From: a candidate division WWE3 bacterium RAAC2_WWE3_1
GTDB taxonomy: Bacteria; Patescibacteriota; WWE3; UBA101185; UBA10185
NCBI GenBank assembly: GCA_000503835.1
Contig: CP006914.1
Coordinates: 45,790-109,789 of the forward strand
Direction: 5' to 3'
Length of the DNA: 64,000 bases
Shown: piece after piece, positions 19,820-64,000 of the stretch
Layout of the letters: every line of letters starts with the position of its first letter
Numbering within the stretch: the first letter of the stretch is position 1
Program-made: the position numbers and the translations under genes
The notes under the pieces: model-generated
Seen by the model: only the letters and a program-made list of their open reading frames with translations
Told to the model about the DNA's origin: nothing
Databases searched by the model: none

Positions 19820-19940
19820 GACTTTTGCCCGAAAATGCTTGATTTTTAGGTATTAATCTGGTTAACTAGCAGTTGTCGAATTAGTCTAAACAACTTAAAG
19901 TATTAATTTATATAAATTTTGAAAGGATGATTAATTTAAC

Positions 19941-21119
19941 ATGGCCGAATTTATAAGAAATAAAGAGCACGTAAACATAGGTACCATTGGTCACGTTGAC
20001 CATGGAAAAACCACATTAACTGCGGCTATTACAAAAGTGCTTTCAGGCAAGGGTCAGGCACAGTTTGTTAGCTACGAGAACATCGATAAGGCTCCGGAAG
20101 AAAGAGCCCGAGGTATCACAATCAACATCACACATGTTGAGTATGAGACCGACAAGAGGCACTACGCCCACATCGATGCTCCGGGACACGCAGACTACAT
20201 CAAGAACATGATTACCGGTGCCGCTCAAATGGACGGCGCAATACTTGTGGTTTCTGCTCCTGACGGACCGATGCCTCAAACAAGGGAGCATATTTTGTTG
20301 GCTAAGCAAGTTAACGTTCCTGCCATGGTCGTCTTCATGAATAAGACAGACATGGTTCAGGACAAAGAAATTCTCGATCTCGTTGAGTTAGAGGTAAGAG
20401 AGTTGTTAACCAAGTACGGATTTCCCGGAGATACCACACCGATAATTAAAGGATCCGCTATGAAAGCTTTGGAAGGCGATGCAGATGCAGTAAAGAGCAT
20501 AGAAGAGCTTATGGAGGCTGTCGATACCTTTATTCCTACTCCGGTAAGAGAACTTGATAAACCGTTCCTTATGCCGGTTGAAGACGTATTTACAATCTCA
20601 GGAAGAGGAACTGTCGTTACGGGAAGGATCGAAAGAGGCAAGGTAAAGATTAACGAAGAAATTGAGATCGTCGGAATCAAGGACACAAAGAAGTCGGTCG
20701 TTACAGGTGTAGAAATGTTTAAGAAGCAAATGCAGGAAGGTCTCGCAGGAGACAACGTCGGTATTCTTCTTAGAGGTATTGAGAGAACTGATGTGGAAAG
20801 AGGACAAGTGTTGGCCAAGCCCGGCAGCACCAAGCCCCACACAGATTTCGATGCTGAGGTTTATATATTATCCAAAGAAGAGGGGGGAAGGCAGAAACCT
20901 TTCTTCAGCGGATACAGACCTCAGTTCTATATCAGAACCACTGACGTTACGGGTGAAATAATTCTCCCCGAGGGCGTTGAGATGGTTATGCCCGGAGATA
21001 AAGTGAATATGAAAGTTAAACTCATTACACCGGTCGCACTAGAAGATGGTATGAGATTCGCTATAAGAGAAGGCGGACACACTGTCGGAGCAGGAGTTAT
21101 CTCTAAAGTTAACGCTTAA
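19941..21119 (+). CDS. tuf: Elongation factor Tu
   Basis: [26 protein letters not shown], 392 aa; AAAGGA SD. Confidence 0.95.
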
Positions 21120-21132
21120 GAAACAAGTTTTT

Positions 21133-21158
21133 AGAGTGCCCCCGAAAGGGGGCACTCT
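21133..21158 (+). promoter_or_regulatory. Very stable stem-loop: 11-bp stem (agagtgccccc/gggggcactct) closed by a GAAA tetraloop, between tuf and rpsJ; no downstream U-tract.
   Basis: Perfect inverted repeat read directly. The ORF track extended rpsJ through it; the real rpsJ ATG is at 21172. Confidence 0.6.
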
Positions 21159-21171
21159 ATCGTTGGGTAAA

Positions 21172-21492
21172 ATGGTAAAAGCTCAAAAAGAAACAAAAAT
21201 CAGAATAAAGCTCAATTCCTATGACAGCAGGATTATAGATCTTAGCTGCTCCAGGATAGTTGATACGGCAATAAGGACCGGAGCCAAAGTAGTAGGACCG
21301 GTGCCCCTTCCCACAAGAATTGAGAAGTTTACTGTTATCAGAGGACCGCATATCGATAAGAGGTCGAGAGAGCAATTTGAGCTCAGAACTCACAAAAGAG
21401 TGGTCGACGTTTTGAACCCGACAGCACAGACCGTAGAGAGCCTTTCAAAGCTCAGTTTGCCGGCCGGTGTTGGGATAACGATGAAGATGTAA
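21172..21492 (+). CDS. rpsJ: 30S ribosomal protein S10
   Basis: [48 protein letters not shown]... canonical S10; start moved to the internal ATG after the hairpin. Confidence 0.9.
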
Positions 21493-21625
21493 GTTGAGGA
21501 TTGATACGGCGAAAGTCTGGATTTTTGCCGTAAATTAAGGTAATATAAGTCGCTTAATGCTGGAAACGTCCAAAAATAGCCGGCTCGTCCGGAAAAAGTA
21601 GTTTATAACAAGGGTTAAATTAGTG

Positions 21626-21650
21626 GGCGCCCCTTGGGCGCTAATTTTTT
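21626..21650 (+). terminator. Intrinsic-terminator-like element: GC hairpin (gcgccc-ctt-gggcgc) then aa + T6, ending 4 nt before the rplC ATG. Candidate attenuator in the 161-nt rpsJ–rplC spacer.
   Basis: Stem (6 bp GC), loop and T-run read directly; rplC has no SD. Confidence 0.5.
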
Positions 21651-21653
21651 GCC

Positions 21654-22082
21654 ATGAGCGAAAAGATAAAAGGAATAAAACTTAACATGAGCCAGATATT
21701 TCTCGATACGGGAAAAGTGATTCCTGTAACGGTAATTGGCAAAATCGACGATGATATTACGGCGGAGATGGAAAATAAACCGGTTCAGATTGTGGGAATT
21801 TCCAAAGGAAAAGGTTTTGCGGGCGGAATGAAGAGATGGCATTTCTCAGGAGGTCCCGCTACGGGCGGACAAAGTACAAAACCCAGAGCACCCGGATCAA
21901 TTGGTAGTCAGACACCGGGAAGGGTCAGAAAAGGTAAGAAAATGGCCGGAAGACTGGGCGGCGACAGGGTTACGATTAAAGGTTTAAAAATTGTAAGAGT
22001 AATGCCCGATCAAAAACAGCTCATGGTCTCAGGTCCTGTACCGGGGGCAAGAAATTCTAAAATTACGATCGAGCTAAAGTAA
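21654..22082 (+). CDS. rplC: 50S ribosomal protein L3, short form (142 aa)
   Basis: MSEKIKGIKLNMSQIFLDTGKVIPVTVIG...SKGKGFAGGMKRWHFSGGPATGGQS...PGSIGSQTPGRVRKGKKMAGRLGGDRVTIKGLKIVRV. About 60-70 aa shorter than typical bacterial L3 between the PVTVI and GKGFAG blocks; in frame, no stops. Confidence 0.88.
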   Translation: MSEKIKGIKLNMSQIFLDTGKVIPVTVIGKIDDDITAEMENKPVQIVGISKGKGFAGGMKRWHFSGGPATGGQSTKPRAPGSIGSQTPGRVRKGKKMAGRLGGDRVTIKGLKIVRVMPDQKQLMVSGPVPGARNSKITIELK

Positions 22083-47372: not shown

Positions 47373-48867
47373 TCTTTTATACTTGATAATATTTCTTGCC
47401 CTGGTTTTGAGACTGGCAGGAATAAGTCACGGGTTCCCGTTTATTTTTCATCCCGACGAACCGACCATAGTTCAATCGGCTCTCGGAGTGAGGTTCGATC
47501 CGAATCCTGGTCATTTCGACTGGCCCCATTTTTTTATATACGCTAATTATTTTGTTTTTAACATCTTTGCCAAAATCCGTGACCTCGCTGTAGATTACAA
47601 CATTCAGAACTTCATGATAAAAATATTTCCATTAATGTGGGACGACACCGTCGTATTTTATTTTATTACGCGCGTTTTTGTGGCAGTGCTCGGGGGGCTC
47701 ACTGTTATTCCCGTATATAAAACAGGAAAAGTTCTTTTCGGCGAGAAAGTGGGTTTACTGTCGGCTCTGGCTTTTGCCGTGATACCTTTTCATGTCCGGC
47801 ACTCTCATTACTCCCTGCCGGATACGCCCATGTTGTTCTTCTTATCCTGGGGGATTTACTTTGCAGCCCGAATTCTATCTCAGGGATACCCTATAGACTA
47901 CGTCTTTTCGGGTTTGTTTATAGGAATAGCCGCCTCAACCAAGTATAACGGGGGTCTGGGAGCCCTTACGGTGCCTTTGGCGGCGTTTTTACGCCGGGTG
48001 CTGGTGAAAATGCGTCTCTCGGAAAATTTATCAGAAACAAGGGGGGATTTTCCCTATTTTAAGACCGTTCTGAACCTTATTTTGTCCGGAATTTTTGCTT
48101 TTTTGGGGTTTGTCCTAGGAACTCCTTACTCGGTACTGGATTACAAGACTTTTAGCAGGACAGACTCGCCGCTGGGGGCCTTTTGGCAGTTCACAAATGT
48201 CGGTTCCGTGGATTTTGCGGAGCACGTTAGTAAATTTTTCACTGATATTAGTTTTAAGATCTCAGATGATATGGGGTACACAATTTTGGTCTCTCTCTTT
48301 TTAACTTTAGGTGTAGTGTTAATAAGATTTTTGAAAGGTACGTTTTCAAGATTCGATGTATCGTTAATGTTTTTAATTGTTTCGGCGTTAGTTTTCATTT
48401 ACTACATCTCAGGTTTTGAAAAAAGCCGTTCGCAATATTATTTCATTATTTATCCTTTTGTATCCGTAGTTTTCGGTTATTTTTGTGTGTGGGTAGTGAA
48501 TAAGATAAGTTTGGGAATGAAGCCTCTTTATTTTCCAGTCATACTCCTGCTATTTTTAGCGCCTTTTTACCTTTCGGTTGATACCGCTGTGAGATTTTTG
48601 AGAAATGACACCCGTCTTGACCTGAAAAAATTCTTAGAGACGGAAGTACCGTTTGGCACGAGGGTAGTTTACGGAAGTTCGGACGCCGCGGCGGTATCGA
48701 AATACGTTTTTAACAACGCAGTAAAAGATCCCGGTAAGTTACCTAAAGGAACGCGGTATTATTACATAGAATTAAACAAGGGCGTCTCTTCAGGCCGTGC
48801 TATTTTCGAGGTGTCCAATAAGGGCAGAATAGGGCCGTATATCACTGTCGAGGAGATGATTAGATGA
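47353..48867 (+). CDS. GT-C membrane glycosyltransferase, ArnT/PMT-like
   Basis: MSKKTSSLLYLIIFLALVLRLAGISHGFPFIFHPDEP: ArnT-type N-terminus with a DE-containing first loop. Confidence 0.65.
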   Translation: MSKKTSSLLYLIIFLALVLRLAGISHGFPFIFHPDEPTIVQSALGVRFDPNPGHFDWPHFFIYANYFVFNIFAKIRDLAVDYNIQNFMIKIFPLMWDDTVVFYFITRVFVAVLGGLTVIPVYKTGKVLFGEKVGLLSALAFAVIPFHVRHSHYSLPDTPMLFFLSWGIYFAARILSQGYPIDYVFSGLFIGIAASTKYNGGLGALTVPLAAFLRRVLVKMRLSENLSETRGDFPYFKTVLNLILSGIFAFLGFVLGTPYSVLDYKTFSRTDSPLGAFWQFTNVGSVDFAEHVSKFFTDISFKISDDMGYTILVSLFLTLGVVLIRFLKGTFSRFDVSLMFLIVSALVFIYYISGFEKSRSQYYFIIYPFVSVVFGYFCVWVVNKISLGMKPLYFPVILLLFLAPFYLSVDTAVRFLRNDTRLDLKKFLETEVPFGTRVVYGSSDAAAVSKYVFNNAVKDPGKLPKGTRYYYIELNKGVSSGRAIFEVSNKGRIGPYITVEEMIR

Positions 48868-50480
48868 TGCTTAAATTGCTCAAAAATTACAAAATAGAAA
48901 TAATTTTCGTCTTACTTTTTATATTGTCCAGGTTTCCTGACCTTGGGTACGACGTCTTCAATACCGACGTGTGGAAATGGAAAGCCAGGAGCTACGATTT
49001 CGGAACCGGTGTTTTTACATGGGATTTGGAAAAGACAATTCAGAAATATCACCCGGGTGTCACTTTGATGTGGCTCGGAACCGCGGCAATCAAGGTTTAC
49101 AATTTTTATTCCGGATACTATCCGGTGGAAAATAATACCCAAATGATCTTTCAACTGCACTTTGTACAGAAACTTTTTGTTACGACGGCAGTAGCTGTAA
49201 CTTTGGCGTTCGGTCTTTTTGTATTAAAAAAGTTATTCGGGGCAAGAAAAGCCTTGCTCGTTGTTGCATTACTTAGTTTAGAACCTTTTTACATTGCACT
49301 GACACGCGTTTTTCATTTGGAGGGATTAATGTCGACTTTCATGTTTGCATCGTTTCTCTGGCTTTATTATTACACCCTCGATGTAACCAAGAAAAAAAGG
49401 TTATTACTTTCGGCGGTATTTGCCGGTTTGGCGTTCTTGACCAAGACATCGGCGTTATTTATGTTCCCTTATGCGGGGTTAATTCTGTTGCTGGAGGGTT
49501 GGAAGAGATCAAAGAATTTTGCGGGGGCCGTACGCGATGCTCTGCCGAAGATAGGGCAGTGGATTTTGGTATTCGCGGTCGTATTTGTGGCAGTTTGGCC
49601 AGCTATGTGGGCTTTTCCGAGCCAGGCTCTAAGTGCATTGTATAGAGGGGTTTCGGAGATAGGGATTGAGAGGGAGCACGTGCAATTCTATTTCGGCAGT
49701 CTCGTCGAAGATCCCGGCTTTTTTTACTATTTTGTAGTTTTGGGGCTAAGGTCCTCGTACCTGTTAATTTTAGGTTTAGCCGGTGTCGCGGTCTTTTGGA
49801 AAAAAATATTCAATGAAGGACAACGAAAGTTTTTGTTCTACATTTTGTTATTTGTAGGATTTTACTTTGCACAGTTGATTATCCCTACGAAAAAGCTGGA
49901 CCGCTACATTCTGCCGAATATTATGATGCTCTCTCTTGTCACTTCTTTGTTCTGGATTTGGGTTCTGGAAAAGATAAAAGGCAGAAGCTTTCTCAAATTC
50001 ATCCCGTTGGTAGCAGTGGCAATAATTCCGATGTTATATCTTCATCCTGATTATTTGTCGTATTACAACCCGATCTTCGGCGGCCTTAAAAAAGGAATAA
50101 ACGTTTTGGAACCTAAATGGATGATCGGGGGCAAAGAAATAATAGCTTTCTTTGAACAAAAAATGATCGAAGATGGGACACAGCCGGTATACAGCGATAC
50201 TTCGCCGGAGAGAATAATGAACGGTACGGGCACGCCAAATATACTAACCGTAGCTTTCCAGGAAAAATATTATACTCAGATACATCCTTTTTTCCGTAGA
50301 ATAGGGGGATTTGCGGTCATCGAGGATCTTACGCCTTTTGCGGTCAAGACAAAATATTTTGTCTACCCGGTCTGGAACGACGTTTCTGCGGAAGAAAAAA
50401 GATTCGGGCTCAGGTACATCGATAGTATTTATCTCCGGGGCGTGGAGGTGTACAGGGTCTACGAAAGAACTCCATTATGA
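48864..50480 (+). CDS. GT-C membrane glycosyltransferase, ArnT/PMT-like (paralog B of 45798)
   Basis: YHPGVTLMWLG, LEPFYIALTRVFHLEG, KKLDRYILPNIMM. Confidence 0.65.
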   Translation: MMLKLLKNYKIEIIFVLLFILSRFPDLGYDVFNTDVWKWKARSYDFGTGVFTWDLEKTIQKYHPGVTLMWLGTAAIKVYNFYSGYYPVENNTQMIFQLHFVQKLFVTTAVAVTLAFGLFVLKKLFGARKALLVVALLSLEPFYIALTRVFHLEGLMSTFMFASFLWLYYYTLDVTKKKRLLLSAVFAGLAFLTKTSALFMFPYAGLILLLEGWKRSKNFAGAVRDALPKIGQWILVFAVVFVAVWPAMWAFPSQALSALYRGVSEIGIEREHVQFYFGSLVEDPGFFYYFVVLGLRSSYLLILGLAGVAVFWKKIFNEGQRKFLFYILLFVGFYFAQLIIPTKKLDRYILPNIMMLSLVTSLFWIWVLEKIKGRSFLKFIPLVAVAIIPMLYLHPDYLSYYNPIFGGLKKGINVLEPKWMIGGKEIIAFFEQKMIEDGTQPVYSDTSPERIMNGTGTPNILTVAFQEKYYTQIHPFFRRIGGFAVIEDLTPFAVKTKYFVYPVWNDVSAEEKRFGLRYIDSIYLRGVEVYRVYERTPL

Positions 50481-51754
50481 TCGGAGCGCTAATACAAAAG
50501 GTAAAAAGCAATCAATATTTGATTGGGACGGTTTATATAGGTGCGGGCAGTATTTTCGCGGCAATTTTTTCTTACCTTCTCCAGTTCGTTTTCGGAAGAA
50601 TTCTTTCGGTCGCAGATTTCGGGTCATTTAACGCTTTAATCTCATTAACATATTTAGTCGGAGTTCCCGCGGGGGTGTTCGGTGTTTCACTCGTAAAATA
50701 TGTTTCGGAACTTTCATCAAAACAGGACACAAAAAAACTTACCGCTTTGTACTGGAAACTGCTAGTGCTGTCTCTGTTGCTCGGAGTGGGAATTTCACTA
50801 ATTATATTTTTGTTAAGATCCGGTATTTCGGAGCAGTTAAAGATCTACGATAACAATGCTATTACCGCTTACGCCATACTGATGGGATTATCGTTTGTGG
50901 GGGCCATACCATCTTCGTATCTACAAGGTCTTCTGAGGTATCGTGCCTTCGCATTTTTTAACGTTACCTCCAGCTTTTATCGTTTTGCCTTGTCGGCTTT
51001 AGCTGTTCTACTCGGATTTGAACTGACCGGAGCCTTCGGAGGAATGTTTGTAGCAGGTCTGTTGGCAATAATTACCGCATTTTTTATTTTGCGAAAAAAT
51101 CTCACCGTATTTGAAAACATAAGTTTAGTCGATGACTACAAAAAATTGGTCGCATTCAGTCTGCCGGTAATATTTGTTAATTTCGGACTAATGCTTTTAA
51201 ACAATATCGATCTCATCCTCGTCAAGAAATATTTTGAACCTGAGACAGCCGGTTATTACGCGGGCACCGTAACTTTGGGTAAAATTTTTCTGTTCGGGGC
51301 CGGTGCCGTATCGACAGTAATGTTCCCGACCATTTCCTCTTTGGCAGCCCGTGGGTTAAATTACAGCCGGGCGTTCTTTAAATTTTTATCACTGCAGTTG
51401 GTGTTGGTAGCGGGGGGATTAGTTATCTTCTTCGTTTTTCCCTCGTTCCTTACAAGACTGTTCTTCGGAGAAAGATTTATGAACTCGGTGGAATATCTGC
51501 CGATGTTCTCGCTTTTCATCGGTCTTTATATAGTTATAAATTTTCTCATTCTTTTCTTTTTGGCCGTCAGTAGAACATCGGTGTTCCTTCTTTTGCTACC
51601 CGGGCTTATAGTGCAGTACCTGCTCATAAATTCAAACCACATGACTTTGTACGATATAATCACCGCGGACATATATGCTGGTATAATCAGCCTAGTACTT
51701 CTTACCGCGTTCTTCGTTATAGGAAGCAATGGAAAAAGAACAAAAGAAATCTGA
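50477..51754 (+). CDS. Wzx-like polysaccharide/oligosaccharide flippase (MOP superfamily)
   Basis: 425 aa, 12-14 TM helices. Confidence 0.6.
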   Translation: MIGALIQKVKSNQYLIGTVYIGAGSIFAAIFSYLLQFVFGRILSVADFGSFNALISLTYLVGVPAGVFGVSLVKYVSELSSKQDTKKLTALYWKLLVLSLLLGVGISLIIFLLRSGISEQLKIYDNNAITAYAILMGLSFVGAIPSSYLQGLLRYRAFAFFNVTSSFYRFALSALAVLLGFELTGAFGGMFVAGLLAIITAFFILRKNLTVFENISLVDDYKKLVAFSLPVIFVNFGLMLLNNIDLILVKKYFEPETAGYYAGTVTLGKIFLFGAGAVSTVMFPTISSLAARGLNYSRAFFKFLSLQLVLVAGGLVIFFVFPSFLTRLFFGERFMNSVEYLPMFSLFIGLYIVINFLILFFLAVSRTSVFLLLLPGLIVQYLLINSNHMTLYDIITADIYAGIISLVLLTAFFVIGSNGKRTKEI

Positions 51755-52562
51755 AAAACTAGTTTCGATAATTGTTCCTGCGTACAAACAAGAAAAAACC
51801 ATTAAACAGGATCTTGAAAGTATTCTGAACACTCTGCTTCAGACCAGATGGGAGTTTGAGATTATAGTTGTTGTCGACGGATTTTTAGACAAAACATACG
51901 ATATTGCCAGGTCCTTAGAAAATAAAAAACTAAAGGTTTACGGTTATGAAACAAATAAAGGTAAAGGTTACGCGATAAGATACGGAATGGCACGGGCATC
52001 GGGTGATTACATTTCGTTCATCGACGCGGGAATGGACATAAATCCTAACGGAATATCAATGCTCCTGGAACACATGGAATGGTACGGAGCGGATATTATT
52101 GTCGGGAGTAAGAAACACCCTGTTTCGAAAGTTGATTATCCTCTTGTGAGAAAAATCTATAGCTGGGGTTATCACACTTTGGTGGGGTTGCTTTTCGGGC
52201 TTAAAGTAAAGGATACGCAGACGGGGTTGAAAGTATTTAAAAGAGAAGTGCTTATAAAAGTCCTCCCCCGTTTACTGATAAAAGAGTTTGCTTTTGATAT
52301 CGAGTTATTGTCGGTAGCAAGCCATCTGGGGTTTGTTAATATTTACGAAGCTCCGGTGCACCTCACTATGGATTTCTCCCGGTCTACCTTCTCCCCATTT
52401 TTTCTTCTGGATAAAAACATCAGGAATATGCTTGTGGATACTGCAGCAGTTTTTTACAGGCTTAAAATATTAAAATACTACGACGATTCCAGTAACAGAA
52501 AATGGGTGTATGACAAAGAACTTGACATGAGAATTAACACTGGAGAGTTGAGAAATGAATAG
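51729..52562 (+). CDS. GT2-family glycosyltransferase
   Basis: LVSIIVPAYKQEKTI...VVDGFLD...FIDAGMD. Confidence 0.72.
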   Translation: MEKEQKKSEKLVSIIVPAYKQEKTIKQDLESILNTLLQTRWEFEIIVVVDGFLDKTYDIARSLENKKLKVYGYETNKGKGYAIRYGMARASGDYISFIDAGMDINPNGISMLLEHMEWYGADIIVGSKKHPVSKVDYPLVRKIYSWGYHTLVGLLFGLKVKDTQTGLKVFKREVLIKVLPRLLIKEFAFDIELLSVASHLGFVNIYEAPVHLTMDFSRSTFSPFFLLDKNIRNMLVDTAAVFYRLKILKYYDDSSNRKWVYDKELDMRINTGELRNE

Positions 52563-53568
52563 GTTTAGCATAATTATTCCCGTAAGAAAGTTCAACGAGT
52601 TTTTGAAAGAGAACATTTCACACTTAAAGGAACTGACCTACAGGAATTTTGAGGTAATAATTGTTACCGATGAAAAAGAGAACTACGACTTTCAGGATTC
52701 GAGATTTATTTTAACTAACTCAGGTCCGATTGGTCCGGGTGAAAAAAGGAACCTGGGAGCGGCAAGAGCTACGGGGGACGTTTTGTCTTTTTTGGACGAC
52801 GATGCTTATCCGGAAAAAGACTGGTTGGATAGGGCGGCGGAAATCTTTGAAAATGAGGATGTTTTTGCACTGGGGGGCCCGGCCATAACTCCCAAAGATG
52901 CCAGGTTTTTGGAGAGAATGTCCGGAAGAGTGCTGGAATCGTGGATGGCCAGCGCGGGGACGGTTTATAGGCACAAACCGGGAAAAAATATGGAAATTGC
53001 TGACTACCCCACGGTAAATCTGTTCGTAAGAAAGGACTCTTTTGATAGGGCAGGGGGCTTCCCTGTGGAATTTTGGCCGGGTGAGGACACCAAACTTTGC
53101 CTCGAGCTTGTAAAATCGTACGGGAGAAAATTCGTCTACGATCCAAGACCCGTCGTTTACCACCACAGAAGAAACCTTTTCATTCCGCATCTAAAGCAAA
53201 TATCCAGGTACGGACGCCACAGGGGGCAGTTTGCGAGGATTTTTCCTGAAACCTCCAGGCTTCCTTCATATTTCGCTCCCTCAATGTTCGTGGCAGGATT
53301 GGTGTTAGGCCCGTTTATATCATTATTTATTCCACAATTACTTAAGTTTTATATTTTCGTTGTAGGCGTATATCTTATAATGCTGGTTTTAGAGAGCGTA
53401 AGAGTTTTTCTTAAAGACAAAGATCCGCGCAGTGTCTTTTATGTCGGTGCGGGAATATTTTTAACACACGTTGTATACGGAGTAAATTTCATAATTGGTA
53501 TTATGAAGAAACCTGAGTTAAAATTGAGGAGCGTCGATAAATCATCCGGAAATTATTTAGGAGGATAA
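52555..53568 (+). CDS. GT2-family glycosyltransferase with a C-terminal TM region
   Basis: FSIIIPVRKFNEF...FLDDDAYPE...; hydrophobic C-terminus. Confidence 0.72.
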   Translation: MNRFSIIIPVRKFNEFLKENISHLKELTYRNFEVIIVTDEKENYDFQDSRFILTNSGPIGPGEKRNLGAARATGDVLSFLDDDAYPEKDWLDRAAEIFENEDVFALGGPAITPKDARFLERMSGRVLESWMASAGTVYRHKPGKNMEIADYPTVNLFVRKDSFDRAGGFPVEFWPGEDTKLCLELVKSYGRKFVYDPRPVVYHHRRNLFIPHLKQISRYGRHRGQFARIFPETSRLPSYFAPSMFVAGLVLGPFISLFIPQLLKFYIFVVGVYLIMLVLESVRVFLKDKDPRSVFYVGAGIFLTHVVYGVNFIIGIMKKPELKLRSVDKSSGNYLGG

Positions 53569-53826
53569 ATGGAAGAAGTAACTACATATAAAAATCCAAA
53601 CTCGAAAGTGATAATAAAAGTCATAAATGATAAATGTATAAGTGCGGCGACCTGTATAATTCACGCGCCCGAAACTTTTGATCTCAACCCCGATGGTATT
53701 GTGTACGCGAAAGAAGGAACGTGGGATGAGGCCGAGAAAATTATCAAAGGGGCAAAATCCTGTCCGACAACTGCGATAATTGTCGAAGACCTTGAAGGCA
53801 ACGTGTTGTATCCTGAGAACAAATAG
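53569..53826 (+). CDS. Single-cluster [3Fe-4S]/[4Fe-4S] ferredoxin (Fer4_13/15, P450-partner type)
   Basis: DKCISAATCIIHAPETFDLNPDGIVYAKEG...SCPTTAIIV: a C-x5-C ... CP pattern like actinobacterial Fdx. Confidence 0.7.
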   Translation: MEEVTTYKNPNSKVIIKVINDKCISAATCIIHAPETFDLNPDGIVYAKEGTWDEAEKIIKGAKSCPTTAIIVEDLEGNVLYPENK

Positions 53827-53844
53827 ACAGGTGTCTATATCTTA

Positions 53845-53873
53845 TTGAACTTTCCCGGGGCATTGTATATACT
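53845..53873 (+). promoter_or_regulatory. Sigma70-like promoter: -35 TTGAAC (53845-53850), 17-nt spacer, -10 TATACT (53868-53873), ahead of the radical SAM gene.
   Basis: Hexamers read directly; AAGGA SD 8 nt before ATG 53900. Confidence 0.5.
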
Positions 53874-53899
53874 AAACAGATGAAAAAAGGATTTTTCCG

Positions 53900-55513
53900 A
53901 TGAAAATTGCGATAGGCTACCCTCCAATAGATCAGCTTAAAGGAGTTCCTTTATTATCTCAGAATAGGCAGTTCCAGTATTTCAACGCCCCCACATATAT
54001 TTACCCCATGGTTCCGGCTTATGCGGCTTCTTTGGCCAAAGAACGGGGATACAATGTGGTTTGGATGGACGGAATCTCCGAGAAGAAAACGTACGCAGAA
54101 TGGCTCACCGAGCTTGAAAATGAAAAGCCCGATTATCTTATGATGGAGACCAAAGCTCCGGTTCTAAAGTTCCATTGGAAAATAATAGATGAAATTAAAG
54201 TGAAATTTCCTAACATGAAGGTGGTTTTGGTAGGAGATCATGTTACCTGGAATCCTGTTGAAACGCTGGATGCCTGCAAAGTAGATTACATCATAACGGG
54301 GGGCGATTACGACTTTTTGCTTAGTGATATGGTCGATGCCATTAAAAATAATGCCTTTTTACCGGGTGGAATTTACGGAAGAAAAGAAGACACCGGCGTA
54401 TCGATTGATCCCAAGTGGCTGAAGATGCACAAGTCCGAAATATCCGGAGAAGAAGCATACTTTCAGAGTGGTCCTTTAGAGCTTCAACATAATCTTGATG
54501 ATCTTCCTTTTGTTGACCGTGACCTTACCAAGTGGAAACTTTACGCGTATGCGAACGGAAATTATAAATACACACCGGCGACCTACATGTATTCAGGAAG
54601 GGATTGCTGGTGGAACAGGTGTACCTTTTGTGTTTGGGACCATACACTAAATCCCAAAGGATTTTACAGAAGGTTTTCTCCCGAAAGGCTTTTCGCGGAA
54701 GTTAAACATGTTGTCGATAACTACGGGGTCAAAGAAATTTTTGACGACGCCGGAACCCTGTTTGTAGGACCTCCCCTGAAAAAGTTTTGTGAGCTGTTAA
54801 TAGACTCGGGGTATAACAAGAAAGTTGTTTTCGGGTGCAATATGCGTTTGAATGCTTTAACCTCCGAATATTACCGGTTAATGGGCAAGGCTAATTTTAG
54901 GTTTATTTTATACGGAATGGAGTCTGCGAACCAATTTACTTTAGATAAGCTGGACAAAGGTCTTCAGGTTGAAGAGATTGCGGAAGGTGCCAAAATGGCC
55001 AAAAAGGCAGGTTTGGAGCCCCATATTACAGTAATGCTCGGGTATCCTTGGGAGACTGAGGAAATGGCTCAAAAAACAATAGATTTAGCCAAGGATTTGT
55101 TTAAAAGAGGCTATGTTGACACAATGCAGGCTACAATCGTCATTCCCTATCCCGGAACTCCTTTGTATAAAGAGTGTGTTGAAAAGGATTGGCTGCAGGT
55201 CGGGGCGAAAGATTATGAAAAGTTTGATATGAGGGCGCCGGTCATGAAGATACCTTTTTCGAATGAACATCTGTACGAGCTGACCCAATCACTGTATTCC
55301 TCATTCTTTACCCCTCAGTATATTTTCAGAAAAGTTGTGTCTGTTAGAAATTGGAACGATGTAAGATTTCTCTGGTATTCGGCCTGGAAATTGATAGGCC
55401 ACCTTTTGGATTTTGATAAGGAACAGACTCGGGTAAATTGGTTATCGCCAAAGTTCTGGGGAAATGCGTTAAAAAGTATGTTCGGAACTGCCGCCGTGGC
55501 CAAGAAAGAATGA
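53900..55513 (+). CDS. B12-binding-domain radical SAM enzyme (class B-like) with a non-canonical Cx4Cx2C cluster motif
   Basis: N-terminal B12-binding-like region (DYLMMETKAPVLKFHWKIIDEIKVKFPNMKVVLVGDHVT); SGRDCWWNRCTFCVWDH; downstream radical SAM TIM-barrel blocks. Confidence 0.7.
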   Translation: MKIAIGYPPIDQLKGVPLLSQNRQFQYFNAPTYIYPMVPAYAASLAKERGYNVVWMDGISEKKTYAEWLTELENEKPDYLMMETKAPVLKFHWKIIDEIKVKFPNMKVVLVGDHVTWNPVETLDACKVDYIITGGDYDFLLSDMVDAIKNNAFLPGGIYGRKEDTGVSIDPKWLKMHKSEISGEEAYFQSGPLELQHNLDDLPFVDRDLTKWKLYAYANGNYKYTPATYMYSGRDCWWNRCTFCVWDHTLNPKGFYRRFSPERLFAEVKHVVDNYGVKEIFDDAGTLFVGPPLKKFCELLIDSGYNKKVVFGCNMRLNALTSEYYRLMGKANFRFILYGMESANQFTLDKLDKGLQVEEIAEGAKMAKKAGLEPHITVMLGYPWETEEMAQKTIDLAKDLFKRGYVDTMQATIVIPYPGTPLYKECVEKDWLQVGAKDYEKFDMRAPVMKIPFSNEHLYELTQSLYSSFFTPQYIFRKVVSVRNWNDVRFLWYSAWKLIGHLLDFDKEQTRVNWLSPKFWGNALKSMFGTAAVAKKE

Positions 55514-55544
55514 GTACGCGTTTGAGTACAAAAGTAATCTTCAA

Positions 55545-55590
55545 CTTAAAAAAGAAAAGCCGCGAATTGTTTTTTTAAACATCGCGGCTT
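55545..55590 (-). terminator. Intrinsic terminator for the minus-strand small-ORF operon: 9-bp stem (aagccgcga/tcgcggctt); on the minus strand it is followed by UUCUUUUUUAAG.
   Basis: Inverted repeat and the T-run orientation read directly; no T-run on the plus strand. Confidence 0.55.
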
Positions 55591-55598
55591 TGTAAATC

Positions 55599-55907
55599 TT
55601 AGTTAGCATCGGCGAGCTCAAGTTCGTCGTTAATAACGGGGTCCAGGTGAGCGTCGACAAGTGTCTTATTGTTAATTGACACGGCACTGAAGTCTTTCGG
55701 TAGAGTGCTCACATTCACCAAAACTCCTCGTTTCATCCTGGTCACCTGAACCGTAAAATACCTTTCCTGATCGCGTTCAGGGTTTACATACGAGTTTAGG
55801 TTTATGTACAACCTGCCCCCGCTTTTAATAAAGGCGCCCGGTGAAACGAATACCGTCGTGTTCACGGGTTTGGTACGAAGAGTAACCATCGGATCCGAAA
55901 TATGCAT
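55599..55907 (-). CDS. Hypothetical protein F (102 aa); paralog of protein E
   Basis: AAAGGAGAAAA SD immediately upstream. Shares TV.-VS..F...GG.LYIN and TLP...PV..ELE blocks with E. Confidence 0.6.
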   Translation of the reverse strand: MHISDPMVTLRTKPVNTTVFVSPGAFIKSGGRLYINLNSYVNPERDQERYFTVQVTRMKRGVLVNVSTLPKDFSAVSINNKTLVDAHLDPVINDELELADAN

Positions 55908-55922
55908 TTTTTCTCCTTTCTC

Positions 55923-56216
55923 TTAGTTTGAATAGCCGATGAAGCTTTCTTCCAGCTCAACCGGTCTGAAGTTAAACTGTCTTATCACCCAATTGTCCAA
56001 AACCGGTACTTCAAGAAAGGCAGGTAAGGTACATATAGCTACTGTTACGCTGGCAACGAGCGTGATAATGCGTATCGTTTGTTTGGTCGCCAGATTGCAG
56101 GTCAGGCTCACAATCTCCTCGGAGTTTATGTATAGATCTCCTTCGTAGAATGCAAAGACGTCCTGCGAAACATAAGCTACTGTGTACTTTGGCAGATCGG
56201 CAAGTCTGTACAACAT
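55923..56216 (-). CDS. Hypothetical protein E (97 aa) with one predicted TM helix
   Basis: GAGGAG SD 8 nt upstream; 10-nt gap from gene D; hydrophobic IRIITLVASVTVAICTLPAFL. Confidence 0.55.
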   Translation of the reverse strand: MLYRLADLPKYTVAYVSQDVFAFYEGDLYINSEEIVSLTCNLATKQTIRIITLVASVTVAICTLPAFLEVPVLDNWVIRQFNFRPVELEESFIGYSN

Positions 56217-56226
56217 TCTCGGCTCC

Positions 56227-56454
56227 TCAGACTGATATGTATTTCCTCATTGTTCTGACGTATTCCCGTAACAGGTGTCTGAATCTGACTGTAATCTGCG
56301 GGTCCGTTTCGCAAGAGACGTCGATAAAGAATCCCTTTCTGCTCTTTAATACTTCGACGTTGAGATAGTCCGTTCTGTATTTCTCAGCCGCTAGCAATTT
56401 GATTACGTGATCCACCGCATCCTTCGCGTTCCGGTACGACAAAAAGTACGGCAT
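56227..56454 (-). CDS. Hypothetical protein D (75 aa)
   Basis: AAAGGGGA SD before the internal ATG 56454; the longer form (to 56487) would overlap gene C. Confidence 0.5.
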   Translation of the reverse strand: MPYFLSYRNAKDAVDHVIKLLAAEKYRTDYLNVEVLKSRKGFFIDVSCETDPQITVRFRHLLREYVRTMRKYISV

Positions 56455-56473
56455 CTCGGTCCCCTTTCGGTTA

Positions 56474-56770
56474 TCAGTATGGCTCAAACAACTTCGACAT
56501 GAGCTGTTTGAGAGCTATTACCGGGATGTATTCGCCGGTTGCCAGTTTTTCCCTGCTTATGACGTTATTTTTTGCTTTACTGGTGTCGATGTCCATTGTA
56601 TGAAGAATGGAATGCACCCGCCTGACCAGAATGTCGGACTTACTGTTTCCGGACGGATAGCACATGGTGTTTTGGTTGACGAAGCAAATGCCTCCGTCAT
56701 TCGAGTAAAGATCCTCTTCCCTGATGTACGCAGCCTCCCAATTTCTCAGTTCTCTTACGGCTTTCACCAT
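56474..56770 (-). CDS. Hypothetical protein C (98 aa)
   Basis: AAAGAGAGGAGAG SD 6 nt upstream of ATG 56770; the track's longer 56857 start lacks an SD. Confidence 0.5.
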   Translation of the reverse strand: MVKAVRELRNWEAAYIREEDLYSNDGGICFVNQNTMCYPSGNSKSDILVRRVHSILHTMDIDTSKAKNNVISREKLATGEYIPVIALKQLMSKLFEPY

Positions 56771-57007
56771 ATCGCTCTCCTCTCTTTGGATTATTGTTAT
56801 TGATGGGATTCTATCAGCACAACGGGGTGTTTTCAAATCAGTCGGGGCAATATGCATTTTACGTTATGCACAGTCCTTATTTTTCATAAAATTTGCATTA
56901 AAAAATGGTTGGGTATAGTGAGTGCTATCTCCCGCGAAAAGTAATAATTCTTCCCAATTAATAGGATATACTACTCATCGAAAATCATGTCCAGTTTAGA
57001 TTTCCAT

Positions 57008-57047
57008 TTAAAAAAGAGGCCCGTTGTGTTTTGTTGGAACAACGGGC
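57008..57047 (-). terminator. Intrinsic terminator after hypothetical gene B: stem gcccgttg/caacgggc, then CUCUUUUUUAAA on the minus strand.
   Basis: Read directly; the U-tract is only on the minus strand. Confidence 0.55.
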
Positions 57048-57073
57048 TTTAGGCTCTAATAATAAACCTGGTT

Positions 57074-57304
57074 TTACTTGGCCGGGGTAAAGCAAATTGT
57101 TTTCCGGTTGGTCTTTTCACAACAGGCATTGTGGTGTTTCAAAGCAGTTACGAAGTTTTTTGCCTGTTCCGGTGATTCGGAGTAAAAAGTGATACGACTG
57201 CGCTCAGCATCTACGTCATAGTGCTGGTTTTCAAACACATGCACTTTCACTCCGACCTCCATTGCCCGTCCTAAATCATCAGGTCCACTGAAATTAATTC
57301 TCAT
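57074..57304 (-). CDS. Hypothetical protein B (76 aa)
   Basis: AAGGGAGG SD upstream; the terminator follows. Confidence 0.5.
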   Translation of the reverse strand: MRINFSGPDDLGRAMEVGVKVHVFENQHYDVDAERSRITFYSESPEQAKNFVTALKHHNACCEKTNRKTICFTPAK

Positions 57305-57381
57305 TGCCTCCCTTACCTTTCTGTGCCGGTTTACTTTCTGAAATAGGTTCCAACTCTTAGTTTTTGGGTTATTCTTCTACT

Positions 57382-57600
57382 TCAAGAAATCTCCTTTCTC
57401 GCCTCCCGGACAAGCTTGTACGATGCTCCTGAAATGCCCGACATAACCAGCTCCCTTATCAGGAAATCGGCTTCATGTCCTTCGCATAAACTTATCAGGA
57501 GTTTGGGGGAGTCGTAGAGCCAGGGAAAATCGCTTTTACGAAGTAATTCCAGACCCGCAGAAAACGCTTCCTCCGTTAAGAAGTAAAAGTCGTACGTCAT
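57382..57600 (-). CDS. Hypothetical protein A (72 aa)
   Basis: AAAGGGAGG SD 5 nt upstream of the ATG; weak similarity to proteins D and C (SCE...R.LxRE). Confidence 0.5.
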   Translation of the reverse strand: MTYDFYFLTEEAFSAGLELLRKSDFPWLYDSPKLLISLCEGHEADFLIRELVMSGISGASYKLVREARKEIS

Positions 57601-57670
57601 GTAGCCTCCCTTTCGTGTCGATTTATTGACAACAGTCTATCAAATCTTGGTGTTATAGTAAAATTAGTAA

Positions 57671-58102
57671 ATGTACATAATACTCACGGAAATGGGACAC
57701 CTGAGCCTTTCTTTATTGATAGGATACGCGTGTTTTAAGATTTTTAGACGCATTTCCGGCTTCGTACCGGCTTTATTATCGGGATTTTTTGTGGATTTTG
57801 ACCACCTGATCGATTATTTTATTCACAAAGGGTTGAGCTTTGATGTAAGCAACTTCATTTCCGGGCGGCATTACCATGAAACCAATACTTCTTATATATT
57901 TTTTCATAGCTGGGAACTTGTTTTGTTCCTGGGTGTCCTTACTTACTATTCGAAGAAAAAATATATTTGGTGCCCTTTAGTTCTCGGACTGACGTTTCAT
58001 TTATTGTGGGATTACTTAACGAATCCGGTTCACTGGTATACGTACTTTTTTACCGCGAGATATTTACTGGGCTTCGCGCTGGATAAACTTTTCGTTTTCT
58101 AG
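57671..58102 (+). CDS. Membrane-bound metal-dependent hydrolase, YdjM/DUF457 family
   Basis: GHLSLSLL..., DFDHLIDY, HSWE..., HLLWDYLTNP: His/Asp motif pattern in a 4-TM protein. Possible extended -10 TGTTATAGT at 57651-57659. Confidence 0.5.
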   Translation: MYIILTEMGHLSLSLLIGYACFKIFRRISGFVPALLSGFFVDFDHLIDYFIHKGLSFDVSNFISGRHYHETNTSYIFFHSWELVLFLGVLTYYSKKKYIWCPLVLGLTFHLLWDYLTNPVHWYTYFFTARYLLGFALDKLFVF

Positions 58103-58121
58103 GTTGTAGTACAATATACAA

Positions 58122-59159
58122 ATGGAAAAACCCACAGTGTCGATTTTAATACCGACATTAAACGCAAGTTCGGTGTTGGGGAATTGCTTGGAATCCATAA
58201 AAAAACAAAATTACCCGGCTGAAAAAATCGAAATTATTGTAGCTGACGGCGGTTCTTCTGATGGAACAGTTGAGATAGCCAAAAAGTATGGGGCGGTTGT
58301 TGTTGAGAACAAATTAAAAACAGGAGAAGCGGGAAAGGCAGCGGCGCTAAGGGCTGCAGGCGGAGAGTTTGCGGCGCTTATTGATTCGGATAACATTTTA
58401 CCCGACGGGAGTTGGCTAGAGCAGATGATTGAGCCTTTGCTGGAGCATGAGGAGGCAGTGGGAAGCGAACCGTGGCAGTACGTGTGGCGAAAAGAAGATG
58501 GGTTTATTGACAGGTATTGTTCTTTAATTGGGATGAATGATCCTTTCGTGATGTTTTTGGGAAATTATGATCGGGTGAACATACTGACAGGAAAGTGGAC
58601 GGAGGTTAAGCATGACGAAAAAGATTTCGGAGATTATTTATTGGTGGGTTTGGATAAAAGAGGAGTTCCGACAATCGGTGCTAACGGAACTGTGTTCAGA
58701 AGCGGGTTCTTGAAGAATAGGGTGAGAGGGGACTACCTATTCGACATTGATATTCTGGCGAAGGAGATAAAGGAAAAAGGGTTTGTGAAATTTATTAAAG
58801 TTAAGAATGGGATTATTCATAATTTTTGCGGAAGAGACGCTGGGAAGTTTGCGAGAAAACAAAGGAGGCGCGTGAAAGATTACCTTTTTCATTTGAATAA
58901 AAAGGGTGGCAGGGAGTTCGGATGGGGCGAGATGGACTTGGGAGGGCAGAGACCGTGGGGTATGATGAAGTTTGTGCTTTATACTTTGTTGGTGGTGCCG
59001 GTGGTGGGGCAGGCTATTTTAGGATTTTTAAAAAAGGCAGATTTCGCGTGGTTTTTTCATCCGGTTGCGTGCTGGATTACTTTGTGGGAGTACGGGTGGG
59101 GTCGAGTTGGCGGTTATTTTAAGACAGCGGAGTTGAGTAGGGAGGGGTGGGGGCAGTGA
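58122..59159 (+). CDS. GT2-family glycosyltransferase
   Basis: VSILIPTLNASSVLGNCLESIKKQNYP...IIVADGGSSDGT...LIDSDN. Confidence 0.75.
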   Translation: MEKPTVSILIPTLNASSVLGNCLESIKKQNYPAEKIEIIVADGGSSDGTVEIAKKYGAVVVENKLKTGEAGKAAALRAAGGEFAALIDSDNILPDGSWLEQMIEPLLEHEEAVGSEPWQYVWRKEDGFIDRYCSLIGMNDPFVMFLGNYDRVNILTGKWTEVKHDEKDFGDYLLVGLDKRGVPTIGANGTVFRSGFLKNRVRGDYLFDIDILAKEIKEKGFVKFIKVKNGIIHNFCGRDAGKFARKQRRRVKDYLFHLNKKGGREFGWGEMDLGGQRPWGMMKFVLYTLLVVPVVGQAILGFLKKADFAWFFHPVACWITLWEYGWGRVGGYFKTAELSREGWGQ

Positions 59160-59165
59160 ACTACT

Positions 59166-59846
59166 ATGGGTGATATTAAGATTAATGAAAAAAACAGTTT
59201 GACGTTAGTAAAGGTCAACTTAGGGTGCGGACCTAGCGGTATTGACGGTTGGATAAATTATGATTGGGGAATTCTTCCACTAATATCAAAAATTCCGTTT
59301 TTGCAAAGAATTATATTTTCTTTTAGGTTACTTCCTTCTTTTTACTCTGCAAAATGGCCGAAGCTTGAGCTTGTAAATATACAAAAAAAATTACCATTGA
59401 AGGACGAATCCGTTAATTACATTTATTGTTCTCATGTGCTGGAACATTTCGAACCGTGGGAAGCCTTAGGTGTGTTAAAGGAATGTAAGCGCATCATGAA
59501 AACTGGCGGTGTTTTAAGAATTGTAACGCCCGATATTCGCAAATTGATTGATATTTACCTTAATTCTGGTAACAATGCTCGCGCTGCGAGACTTCTGTGT
59601 AACATGTGGTGGGGATTTGATAAAGATAGGCAGCCTACAAGTTTTTTGGAAAAGCTTTCGAGAAGATTTACCAGAGAGCATCTTTGGAACTATGATGAAG
59701 AGGAAATGACTGCTCTTATCAAGTCCGCAGGTTTTAATCACGTATCCTTGGTTTCCGTAGGAAAAGGCGAAGTGCCGGATATAGACAGGCTAGATTCCCC
59801 AAAAATGGCAAATACTAGTTTATATGTGGAGGTTAAAAAAATATGA
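59166..59846 (+). CDS. Class I SAM-dependent methyltransferase
   Basis: VNLGCGPSGIDGWINYD..., VLEHFEPWEALGVLKECKRIMKTGGVLRIVTPD. Confidence 0.7.
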   Translation: MGDIKINEKNSLTLVKVNLGCGPSGIDGWINYDWGILPLISKIPFLQRIIFSFRLLPSFYSAKWPKLELVNIQKKLPLKDESVNYIYCSHVLEHFEPWEALGVLKECKRIMKTGGVLRIVTPDIRKLIDIYLNSGNNARAARLLCNMWWGFDKDRQPTSFLEKLSRRFTREHLWNYDEEEMTALIKSAGFNHVSLVSVGKGEVPDIDRLDSPKMANTSLYVEVKKI

Positions 59847-61006
59847 CAAGTGTTTTGCTGATAACACCGTTTTTTCTTCCGAACATAGGCGGTGCTGAAA
59901 CATATGCCTTTGAGCTTGTTGAATATTTAAGATCGCACGACTGTTTAGTGAATGTGCTTACTTATCAACCTATAACAACACCCAACGTTAGGGGCGAGAG
60001 GATGGAGAAAAGAAACAATTTAGTTATAAATCGTTTCCAGTGGATAGGATTCAATTTGTTTGGAAAATTGGAGAAATATCCCCTTATTAATTTTCTTTAT
60101 TTGACTCCGTACCTTCTGCTTAGAAGTTTTGTATGGATGCTATTTAACTCAGGAAAGGTTGATGTCATAGATGCTCAAGGTTTCAACAGCGCTTGTATTG
60201 CAGCAGTTTTGAAAAGAATTTTCAAGAAAAAGGCGGTAATAAGCGTAATGAGTTTGTATGATTTCAAGCCGGGGAACATTTTATCAACGCTAGTTGGGGC
60301 GGTAATCTCGAAAATGGATCACGTTATAGTAGAGAGTAATCGGAGTAAAGAAGAACTTATTTCAATCGGAATAGCTTCTGAGAAGATTACGCCGTACATT
60401 GAGTGGCTAAATCTAGATGTGTTTAAGCCTTACAATAAAATTGAAATGAAGGAAAAGCTGGGGTTGCCGGCACAATTTACTGTTTTGTTTGTAGGGAGAG
60501 CCATAGAGATAAAGGGAATAGATCTTATACTTGAATCAGCCAAAAAACTGCGTAATGAGAAAATAAGCTTTGTGTTTATATCGAATGCGGGGCCTATGAT
60601 GGGCGAGTTGGCGGAGGCAGCATCTAAGGCATTGAATATAGTATTTATACCGGGAGTACCGTACAATAAATTACCCGAGTATGAATCTGCAGCAGATGTT
60701 GCGGTTATACCCTCCAAGTATTCCGAGAATTCTGCAATAACGGTTTTGACTGCTATAAGTTGCGGTACCCCGGTGATTGCATCCAGAGTAGGAGCGATAC
60801 CGAGTTTACTAACCGACGAAGTTGGTGTATTGGTAGAGCCTACTGCCGAGAGCTTCTCTTCTGCGATTTTGGGTTTGTTTAAGGATGGAGTGAGGTATAA
60901 CCAAATGCAGAATAATTGTGAAAGCTATGCAAAGAAACACTTTAGCATCGACAATGCATCTACTATTTATAAAGTTTATTTAAAGGTGCTTGATAGGAGC
61001 TTTTAA
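59843..61006 (+). CDS. GT4-family glycosyltransferase
   Basis: ...IPSKYSENSAITVLTAISCGTPVIASRVGAIPSLL... Confidence 0.72.
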   Translation: MTSVLLITPFFLPNIGGAETYAFELVEYLRSHDCLVNVLTYQPITTPNVRGERMEKRNNLVINRFQWIGFNLFGKLEKYPLINFLYLTPYLLLRSFVWMLFNSGKVDVIDAQGFNSACIAAVLKRIFKKKAVISVMSLYDFKPGNILSTLVGAVISKMDHVIVESNRSKEELISIGIASEKITPYIEWLNLDVFKPYNKIEMKEKLGLPAQFTVLFVGRAIEIKGIDLILESAKKLRNEKISFVFISNAGPMMGELAEAASKALNIVFIPGVPYNKLPEYESAADVAVIPSKYSENSAITVLTAISCGTPVIASRVGAIPSLLTDEVGVLVEPTAESFSSAILGLFKDGVRYNQMQNNCESYAKKHFSIDNASTIYKVYLKVLDRSF

Positions 61007-61007
61007 T

Positions 61008-63850: not shown

Positions 63851-64000
63851 TAAGTTTTACACGGCAGCATCTAGAGTTAAAAAGCTTCTGTCTTCGGCAC
63901 TAAAGATTCGTATCCGTTTATTAAACTCAGCCTTCTTTATGGGAATGGCGAACTCGTTATACAAGCTTGAGAAACTTCCAATCTTTTATCCCGTAGCGTT

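Follow-up and report, generated by a model that had tools for sequence, protein, structure and literature searches.

The spacer between rpsJ and rplC in the analysed DNA (the window hereafter, meaning the whole stretch of 64,000 nucleotides) is best explained as a conserved transcription attenuator of the rplC-rplD-rplW-rplB... operon, switched by translation of a short open reading frame upstream of the terminator (mini-uORF), a reading to which we assign a probability of about one half. Its two parts differ in strength: a terminator/antiterminator structure of the attenuator type directly upstream of rplC is well supported by comparison of related sequences, and we infer that this structure is set by mini-uORF translation. 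An earlier note on this DNA had drawn attention to a 161-nt spacer (21493-21653) with a GC hairpin, a U6 tract and an rplC start without a Shine-Dalgarno sequence, all of which was confirmed from the letters. The note placed the U-run four nucleotides before the start codon; the distance is 3 nt, the U6 tract ending at 21650 and the ATG beginning at 21654.

The source lineage is candidate division WWE3 (Katanobacteria, Patescibacteria), and the L3 protein encoded in the window shares 98% identity with its counterpart in WWE3 RIFOXYC2_FULL_42_13. On the plus strand the gene cluster runs rpoB, rpoC, rpsL, rpsG, fusA, tuf, rpsJ, rplC, rplD, rplW, rplB and onward to secY, with the spacer beginning directly after the TAA stop codon of rpsJ (21490-21492; Table 1). 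No Shine-Dalgarno sequence of the GGAG/GAGG/AGGA type was found upstream of the rplC ATG, and even a loose Shine-Dalgarno-like motif was confined to about half of the window's genes. Hairpin H1, at the start of the spacer, was restricted to the window's own clade, where substitutions in two related loci (L001 and L082; L numbers denote loci throughout) retain pairing (C-G to U.G, G.U to A-U). Another GC hairpin occupies the tuf-rpsJ gap at 21133-21158 (11 bp, AGAGUGCCCCC-GAAA-GGGGGCACUCU), 13 nt upstream of the rpsJ ATG, which also lacks a Shine-Dalgarno sequence; it has no clear U-run. Most related loci carried a hairpin at this site, with differing stem sequences and a tail that was often UUUCUUAU. 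Together with the hairpin at 21626-21642 it brackets rpsJ on both sides.

Table 1. Features of the rpsJ-rplC region, in window coordinates.
Feature	Position	Strand	Basis and remarks
rpsJ (S10)	21172-21492	+	ORF; Pfam Ribosomal_S10, E = 1.5e-33; upstream neighbour of the element
Hairpin H1 (12 bp, loop CUGG)	21505-21532	+	Fold prediction; directly 3' of the rpsJ stop
Candidate -10, TAATAT	21541-21546	+	10 nt upstream of the uORF ATG; putative promoter, no good -35
Mini-uORF, ATG...TAG, 14 codons (MLETSKNSRLVRKK, then stop)	21557-21601	+	ATG uORF at the equivalent place in 46/46 aligned relatives
Clade-specific helix P0	21599-21622 (21599-21605 with 21616-21622)	+	Predicted in MFE folds
Covariance-model match (segment A through U-run)	21606-21651	+	Model R1, 45.6 bits, E = 6e-11
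Segment A (CAAGGG), 5' strand of the antiterminator helix	21609-21614	+	Pairs with 21631-21636; covariation
Terminator hairpin, GGCGCCC-CUU-GGGCGCU	21626-21642	+	Fold, -13.1 kcal/mol; stem paired in 41/41 distinct relatives
U6 tract of the terminator	21645-21650	+	T-run columns at least 90% conserved
rplC (short L3, 142 aa)	21654-22082	+	Pfam Ribosomal_L3; first gene 3' of the element

Bacterial L3 is typically ~210 aa long. In the window, the Pfam Ribosomal_L3 alignment was restricted to profile positions 214-290 of 369, and the missing stretch presumably lies past the N-terminal strand and ahead of the KGKGF motif, as judged by eye against E. coli L3. The best 120 L3 homologues listed were 125-176 aa in length, mostly 130-160 aa; since all of them are short, the short L3 was taken as a trait of the clade.

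The terminator stem consists of seven pairs (G21626-C21632 with G21636-U21642), six of them G-C and the outermost G.U, around the loop C21633-U21635. It is followed in order by AA, the U6 tract, GCC and the rplC ATG, and has the form of an intrinsic terminator, namely a GC-rich stem-loop with a U6 tract beginning 2 nt past the stem. Terminator-like patterns near the element occurred at chance frequency (15 observed versus 11.9 expected). Terminator-like sites were scanned in three regions making up window positions 1-30000 and 48000-64000, and among the sites listed there the rplC hairpin had the highest count of G-C pairs. The pattern GGCGCC-N3-8-GGCGC occurs once in the 64-kb window against 0.04 occurrences expected; the rplC hairpin is more than a chance structure. 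Folding, which the earlier note had suggested as a check, returned the 7-bp hairpin at -13.1 kcal/mol, and gave the spacer as a whole an energy only marginally better than that of shuffled sequences (z = -1.5). With z no further from zero than this, the signal lies in conservation and covariation rather than in folding energy.

Related loci were gathered via the clade-specific N-terminus of the short L3; a scan of contigs with a full-length L3 alignment was swamped by other phyla and contributed L001-L004 and L006 as useful loci. More than 50 related loci, with an L3 50-100% identical to that of the window, carry the same element in the same position, and the conservation that the earlier note had thought worth looking for is therefore present. 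The rpsJ-rplC spacer measures 74-280 nt in nearly all of these loci. Approximately 50 distinct spacers share a stem of the form GCGC(C)-loop-(G)GCGC followed by (A/G)A-U6-8, situated 11-20 nt from the rplC ATG in most relatives and 60-140 nt from it in L108, L110, L111 and L143. At no other site within the related loci did the GGCGCC-type pattern occur, and a REP-like or generic repeat was rejected on account of the single copy per window and per locus. Model R1 gave one match per related locus, its runner-up in the window scoring 12.8 bits, and nothing significant when applied to 75 rpsJ-rplC loci of other phyla. Across 41 distinct sequences, the stem cells were 100% paired and four of six pairs were invariant; the outermost pair alternates between G.U, A-U and G-C and is never broken, and the GCGC/GCGC core is without variation amid a varying loop and flanks. 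A different stem, GCCCUC/GAGGGU, was found in L003.

In Blackburnbacteria (L021), GGCGCC-AGGA-GGCGCC followed by U5 was observed at 2119-2141, upstream of an rplC to which rpsJ is not adjacent. Loci from other Patescibacteria classes with full-length L3 (L020, L027, L030, L033, L050 and L009) have a GC hairpin and U-run with unrelated stems, 17-60 nt upstream of rplC, so that a terminator preceding rplC may be general in the radiation. A search of the whole window against Rfam 15 at gathering thresholds returned no match, and at E values up to 10 the region 21050-21750 produced chance-level matches only (e.g. tracrRNA, CRISPR-DR); no ribosomal-protein leader motif, for which the earlier note had proposed such a scan, was among the families matched. 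No description of the motif was found in full-text literature searches, and the RNA element is apparently undescribed.

The terminator has a competitor. Segment A is purine-rich and lies ~12 nt upstream of the stem in most sequences, and its complement is made up of the two or three C's with which the 5' arm ends and of the first loop nucleotides. In the window, the helix pairs C21609-G21614 with C21631-G21636 at -7.3 kcal/mol. Among relatives, changes in the loop are matched by changes in segment A, as seen in the complementary classes AAGGG/CCCUU (window), UCUGGG/CCCAGA, UCAGGG/CCCUGA, UUUGGG/CCCAAA, CAAAGG/CCUUUG, ACAAGG/CCUUGU, GAAGCG/CGCUUC and AGUGG/CCACU; even the different stem of L003 has its match, a segment A of AAAGAGG that pairs with CCUCUUU. 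The covariation across related genomes that the earlier note had proposed to look for was found in this competing helix: in an alignment-free permutation test of own versus swapped targets, 0 of 5000 permutations reached the observed mean (7.04 versus 5.47 +/- 0.20). Pair counts were also compared with shuffles, on a covariance-model-based alignment that is itself imperfect; 0 of 500 shuffles equalled the data on four of five measures and 12 of 500 on the fifth (change on both sides of a pair), and the unslid register (slide 0) was best. Because linker and C-run lengths vary, both the MAFFT (A3-A5) and the covariance-model (A7) alignments put segment A out of register, and the pair counts therefore understate the covariation; the alignment-free permutation test is preferred for this reason. 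The presence of G.U pairs in the A helix makes it specific to plus-strand RNA.

The A helix and the terminator share C21631, C21632 and G21636 in the window and are therefore mutually exclusive. When the RNA was made to end before the 3' arm, the A helix was part of the predicted MFE fold in most of 18 lineages tested (in the window, for nascent RNA ending at 21636-21638), and in the folds the terminator replaced it once the 3' arm was complete. These models show an A helix that would be available ahead of transcription of the 3' arm; at -7.3 versus -13.1 kcal/mol for the terminator, it could be effective only kinetically. The clade-specific helix P0 includes the uORF stop codon and is predicted to hold segment A in its loop. 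Two other roles for segment A were considered and rejected: a pseudoknot of the A helix with the full terminator, which would leave 1-2 nt to span a 6-bp helix, and a distant Shine-Dalgarno sequence brought near by the hairpin, from which 25 nt would still remain to the start codon. The earlier note had offered regulated read-through or attenuation and, as another possibility, a structured translational operator. The former gains from the hairpin and U-run conserved in a deep clade and from the covariation-supported competing helix; the latter does not explain the antiterminator covariation and may be a secondary role. For the note's more specific suggestion, that L4 autoregulation had moved to this site, the analysis brought out no direct support.

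A conserved mini-uORF, which was not part of the earlier note, precedes segment A. In all 46 aligned spacers an ATG lies 48-70 nt upstream of the terminator stem and opens a frame of 6-14 codons, and this frame is always closed upstream of segment A, with a gap of 6-19 nt (8 nt to AAGGG in the window; 13-19 nt in about half of the lineages). AT-rich sequence closes frames easily, the chance for a single sequence being 0.35-0.79; the joint chance is ~1e-5, a value that takes 26 representatives as independent and so overstates their independence. The conserved box UUAAUGAUAAA...ACAUAA of alignment A3 can be read as a tiny ORF, and its AC(A/U)UAA end keeps the reading frame of the uORF ATG in length variants of 18, 21 and 24 nt. 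Examples of the encoded peptides are MINKRT, MIKIRT, MMIKRT, MIKNKNT, MFDRKT, MLNKNAGT, MIIKAQLIK, MLTGSS and, in the window, MLETSKNSRLVRKK. Since the middle codons vary freely, it is length and position that are conserved and not the peptide; clustered sensor codons were looked for in the uORF peptides and no repeated codon class was found. In L143, the uORF contains a GCGCCC strand complementary to GGGCGC of the terminator 5' arm, and the full-length MFE folds of L143 and L148 have a long-range structure between uORF and 5' arm instead of the terminator. In the window, where the uORF holds small hairpins at 21561-21572 and 21580-21592, some nascent folds pair ACGUCC (21566-21571), which lies within the uORF, with GGGCG (21625-21629). 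The uORFs of the main group, which are AU-rich, lack a strand of this kind. Judged from sequence, the conserved mini-uORF points to ribosome-mediated rather than protein-mediated control.

Promoter-like elements suggest that in several lineages the uORF would lie at, or within a few nt of, the start of a transcript initiated in the spacer, and would be leaderless or nearly so. A near-consensus extended -10 element (TGnTAYAAT) was found 5-8 nt before the uORF ATG in the deep lineages L143, L148, L141, L097 and L093, and L004 has the arrangement TTGCAT-17-TATAAT-8-ATG. A lineage without the terminator (L094, L095 and L099) has TTGAAA-16-TAAAAT-8-ATG, its ATG opening a 3-4-codon ORF within an AAUGC...GCAUU hairpin. 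The -35 is poor in the clade to which the window belongs. For the main group, the strongest -10 candidate sits only 2 nt from the uORF ATG, so that transcription would begin within the uORF itself, and a weaker one, TAGTTT, is 7 nt away; the start site is therefore ambiguous in that group. A promoter overlapping the U-run and giving a leaderless rplC was rejected on two grounds, namely that the distance from TAATTT to the ATG varies (6 to ~12 nt) and that many members have UGAUUU in place of TAATTT.

In the mechanism we propose, an A helix holding while RNA polymerase crosses the U-run would give read-through, and termination would result when segment A is unavailable. The trigger would be translation of the uORF, whose stop lies just upstream of segment A: a ribosome at that stop would cover ~10 nt beyond it and unwind local structure, removing segment A and allowing the terminator to form. 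In some lineages the ribosome would cover the uORF strand complementary to the terminator 5' arm, again letting the terminator form. On a uORF without a ribosome, segment A would pair first, the hairpin would be delayed across the U-run and the operon would be transcribed. Plentiful initiating ribosomes would then mean less transcription of the operon and scarce ones more, a form of negative feedback in which translational capacity is the input. Once the polymerase has read through, the U-rich tract and the stable hairpin may also serve the rplC start, which has no Shine-Dalgarno sequence of its own. A more specific and more tentative form of this proposal, which we regard as somewhat less likely than not, is that a mini-uORF that is leaderless, or nearly so, gauges how far initiating ribosomes are available and thereby sets transcription from L3 through at least secY by a kinetic choice between antiterminator and terminator, WWE3-wide; such a ribosome-sensing attenuator would replace or supplement the protein-specific autoregulation of the E. 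coli type.

Several observations sit poorly with control by ribosomes. A stop-to-A gap of 13-19 nt exceeds the direct reach of a terminating ribosome, the middle of the uORF peptide is poorly conserved, and the start sites are ambiguous, given the short -10 spacing in the main group and the poor -35 in the window's clade. The A helix is much weaker than the terminator and could act only by kinetics. Furthermore, ribosome-mediated control does not require an invariant GCGC/GCGC core, and such a core suggests sequence-specific recognition by a protein. Protein-mediated attenuation, the chief alternative, would have L4 (by analogy with E. coli), L3, L23 or L2 bind the GCGCC/GGCGC hairpin or the A helix, the uORF being incidental or secondary. 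A stem core that stays fixed while loop and flanks vary is typical of a sequence-specific protein site, the element is directly upstream of rplC-rplD, and the E. coli S10 leader with L4 provides a precedent for an attenuator under the control of a ribosomal protein. A further precedent is the B. subtilis rplJL leader (PMC4538822). We nevertheless consider protein-mediated attenuation unlikely, as it leaves unexplained the positionally conserved ATG, the frame that is always closed before segment A and the anti-terminator strand embedded in the uORFs of L143 and L148; moreover, no Rfam ribosomal-leader family was matched even at E values up to 10.

An unregulated partial terminator, or operon boundary, was also considered. 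It would end the tuf-rpsJ transcript with a fixed leak, so that S10 (which is also NusE) is made in excess of the proteins encoded downstream, and the A helix would do no more than tune the leak. The position of rpsJ between two hairpins (21133-21158 and 21626-21642), with the post-tuf hairpin widespread too, is consistent with a boundary, as are the unrelated hairpins with U-runs that other Patescibacteria classes have 17-60 nt upstream of rplC. However, a boundary would work without an invariant stem sequence and without a conserved uORF accompanied by promoter-like elements, and it leaves the covarying competitor helix unexplained. In addition, a hairpin 11-20 nt from rplC is too close for a separate promoter downstream of it, so that all rplC transcription has to cross the hairpin, which favours control over a fixed leak; we find the boundary improbable. 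Still less credible to us is an mRNA 5' stabiliser and translation enhancer acting without termination, in which the hairpin would protect a processed rplC 5' end and the U-rich tract would recruit the ribosome (through protein S1) to a start lacking a Shine-Dalgarno sequence. It would account for the fact that rplC and rpsJ, both without such a sequence, begin 11-14 nt after a GC hairpin whose tail is rich in U or in pyrimidines, but not for the covarying competitor helix or the uORF, and in the four loci with the hairpin 60-140 nt from rplC it is too far away for a role in initiation. Lastly, a small-molecule riboswitch with the A helix and the 12-nt linker as its aptamer is scarcely plausible: it would fit the terminator/antiterminator expression platform and the conserved length of the linker, but the sequence of the linker between segment A and the stem is poorly conserved, a conserved internal loop or junction is absent and we know of no ribosomal-protein operon that is a riboswitch target.

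The attenuator read as set by uORF translation resembles leader-peptide attenuators of the trp/his/pheA type and pyrBI in that a short uORF is followed by antiterminator and terminator helices that exclude one another and by a U-run. Unlike them, it encodes no conserved peptide and lacks a run of sensor codons; a 1:2 anti-antiterminator is missing in most lineages, and the genes that follow encode ribosomal proteins, so that the signal would be translational capacity and not an amino acid. Leaderless polycysteine uORF attenuators are described for mycobacteria (bioRxiv 10.1101/834739), and the uORF described here would likewise be at the transcript 5' end in some lineages. Like the E. coli S10 leader, where attenuation depends on L4 and NusA, the element places a terminator hairpin and U-run shortly before the first regulated gene of an L3-L4-L23-L2... 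cluster and would control transcription of the same gene set; unlike it, the WWE3 element lies between rpsJ and rplC rather than upstream of rpsJ, and no similarity of sequence or structure was detected between the two; the E. coli leader has no uORF. The E. coli S10 leader element is restricted to Gammaproteobacteria (PMC3616713). The Archaeoglobi have an L4 leader candidate upstream of rplC (PMC7247131), which is likewise a cis-element preceding rplC-rplD, in another lineage and with another architecture.

The B. subtilis rplJL leader reportedly forms competing antiterminator and terminator structures and is said to have an anti-antiterminator as well. It mediates L10(L12)4-controlled transcription attenuation of a ribosomal-protein operon (PMC4538822). 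The WWE3 element would share with it the attenuation of a ribosomal-protein operon; the rplJL leader belongs to another operon, is triggered by protein and has no homology to the WWE3 element. With the Archaeoglobi L4 candidate, as with the B. subtilis rplJL attenuator, the likeness is one of function alone.

To our knowledge, little has been described of how uncultivated, genome-reduced bacteria of the candidate phyla control ribosome synthesis, and the autoregulatory leaders of E. coli are confined to narrow lineages. The element is an alignable, covariation-supported RNA that precedes some 25 ribosomal and translation genes. If the proposed mechanism is correct, translational capacity would feed back directly on ribosome synthesis in these bacteria of minimal genome; should the uORF prove to be the trigger, we know of no earlier case in which leader-peptide attenuation governs a ribosomal-protein operon and responds to ribosome availability. 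For annotation, the series of segment A, GCGCC hairpin and U-run can serve as a marker, and the rpsJ-rplC gap in these genomes should not be regarded as empty.

Two further observations were made elsewhere in the window. The tuf start is overlapped out of frame by AUGAUUAAUUUAACAUGG (19928-19945), which resembles the MINL.. mini-uORFs in the rplC leaders of other lineages; this likeness may well be a coincidence. At 58096-58124, TGTAGTACAAT is an element of the extended -10 type 6 nt upstream of an ATG (345-aa ORF at 58122), which suggests that leaderless mRNAs occur in the source genome.
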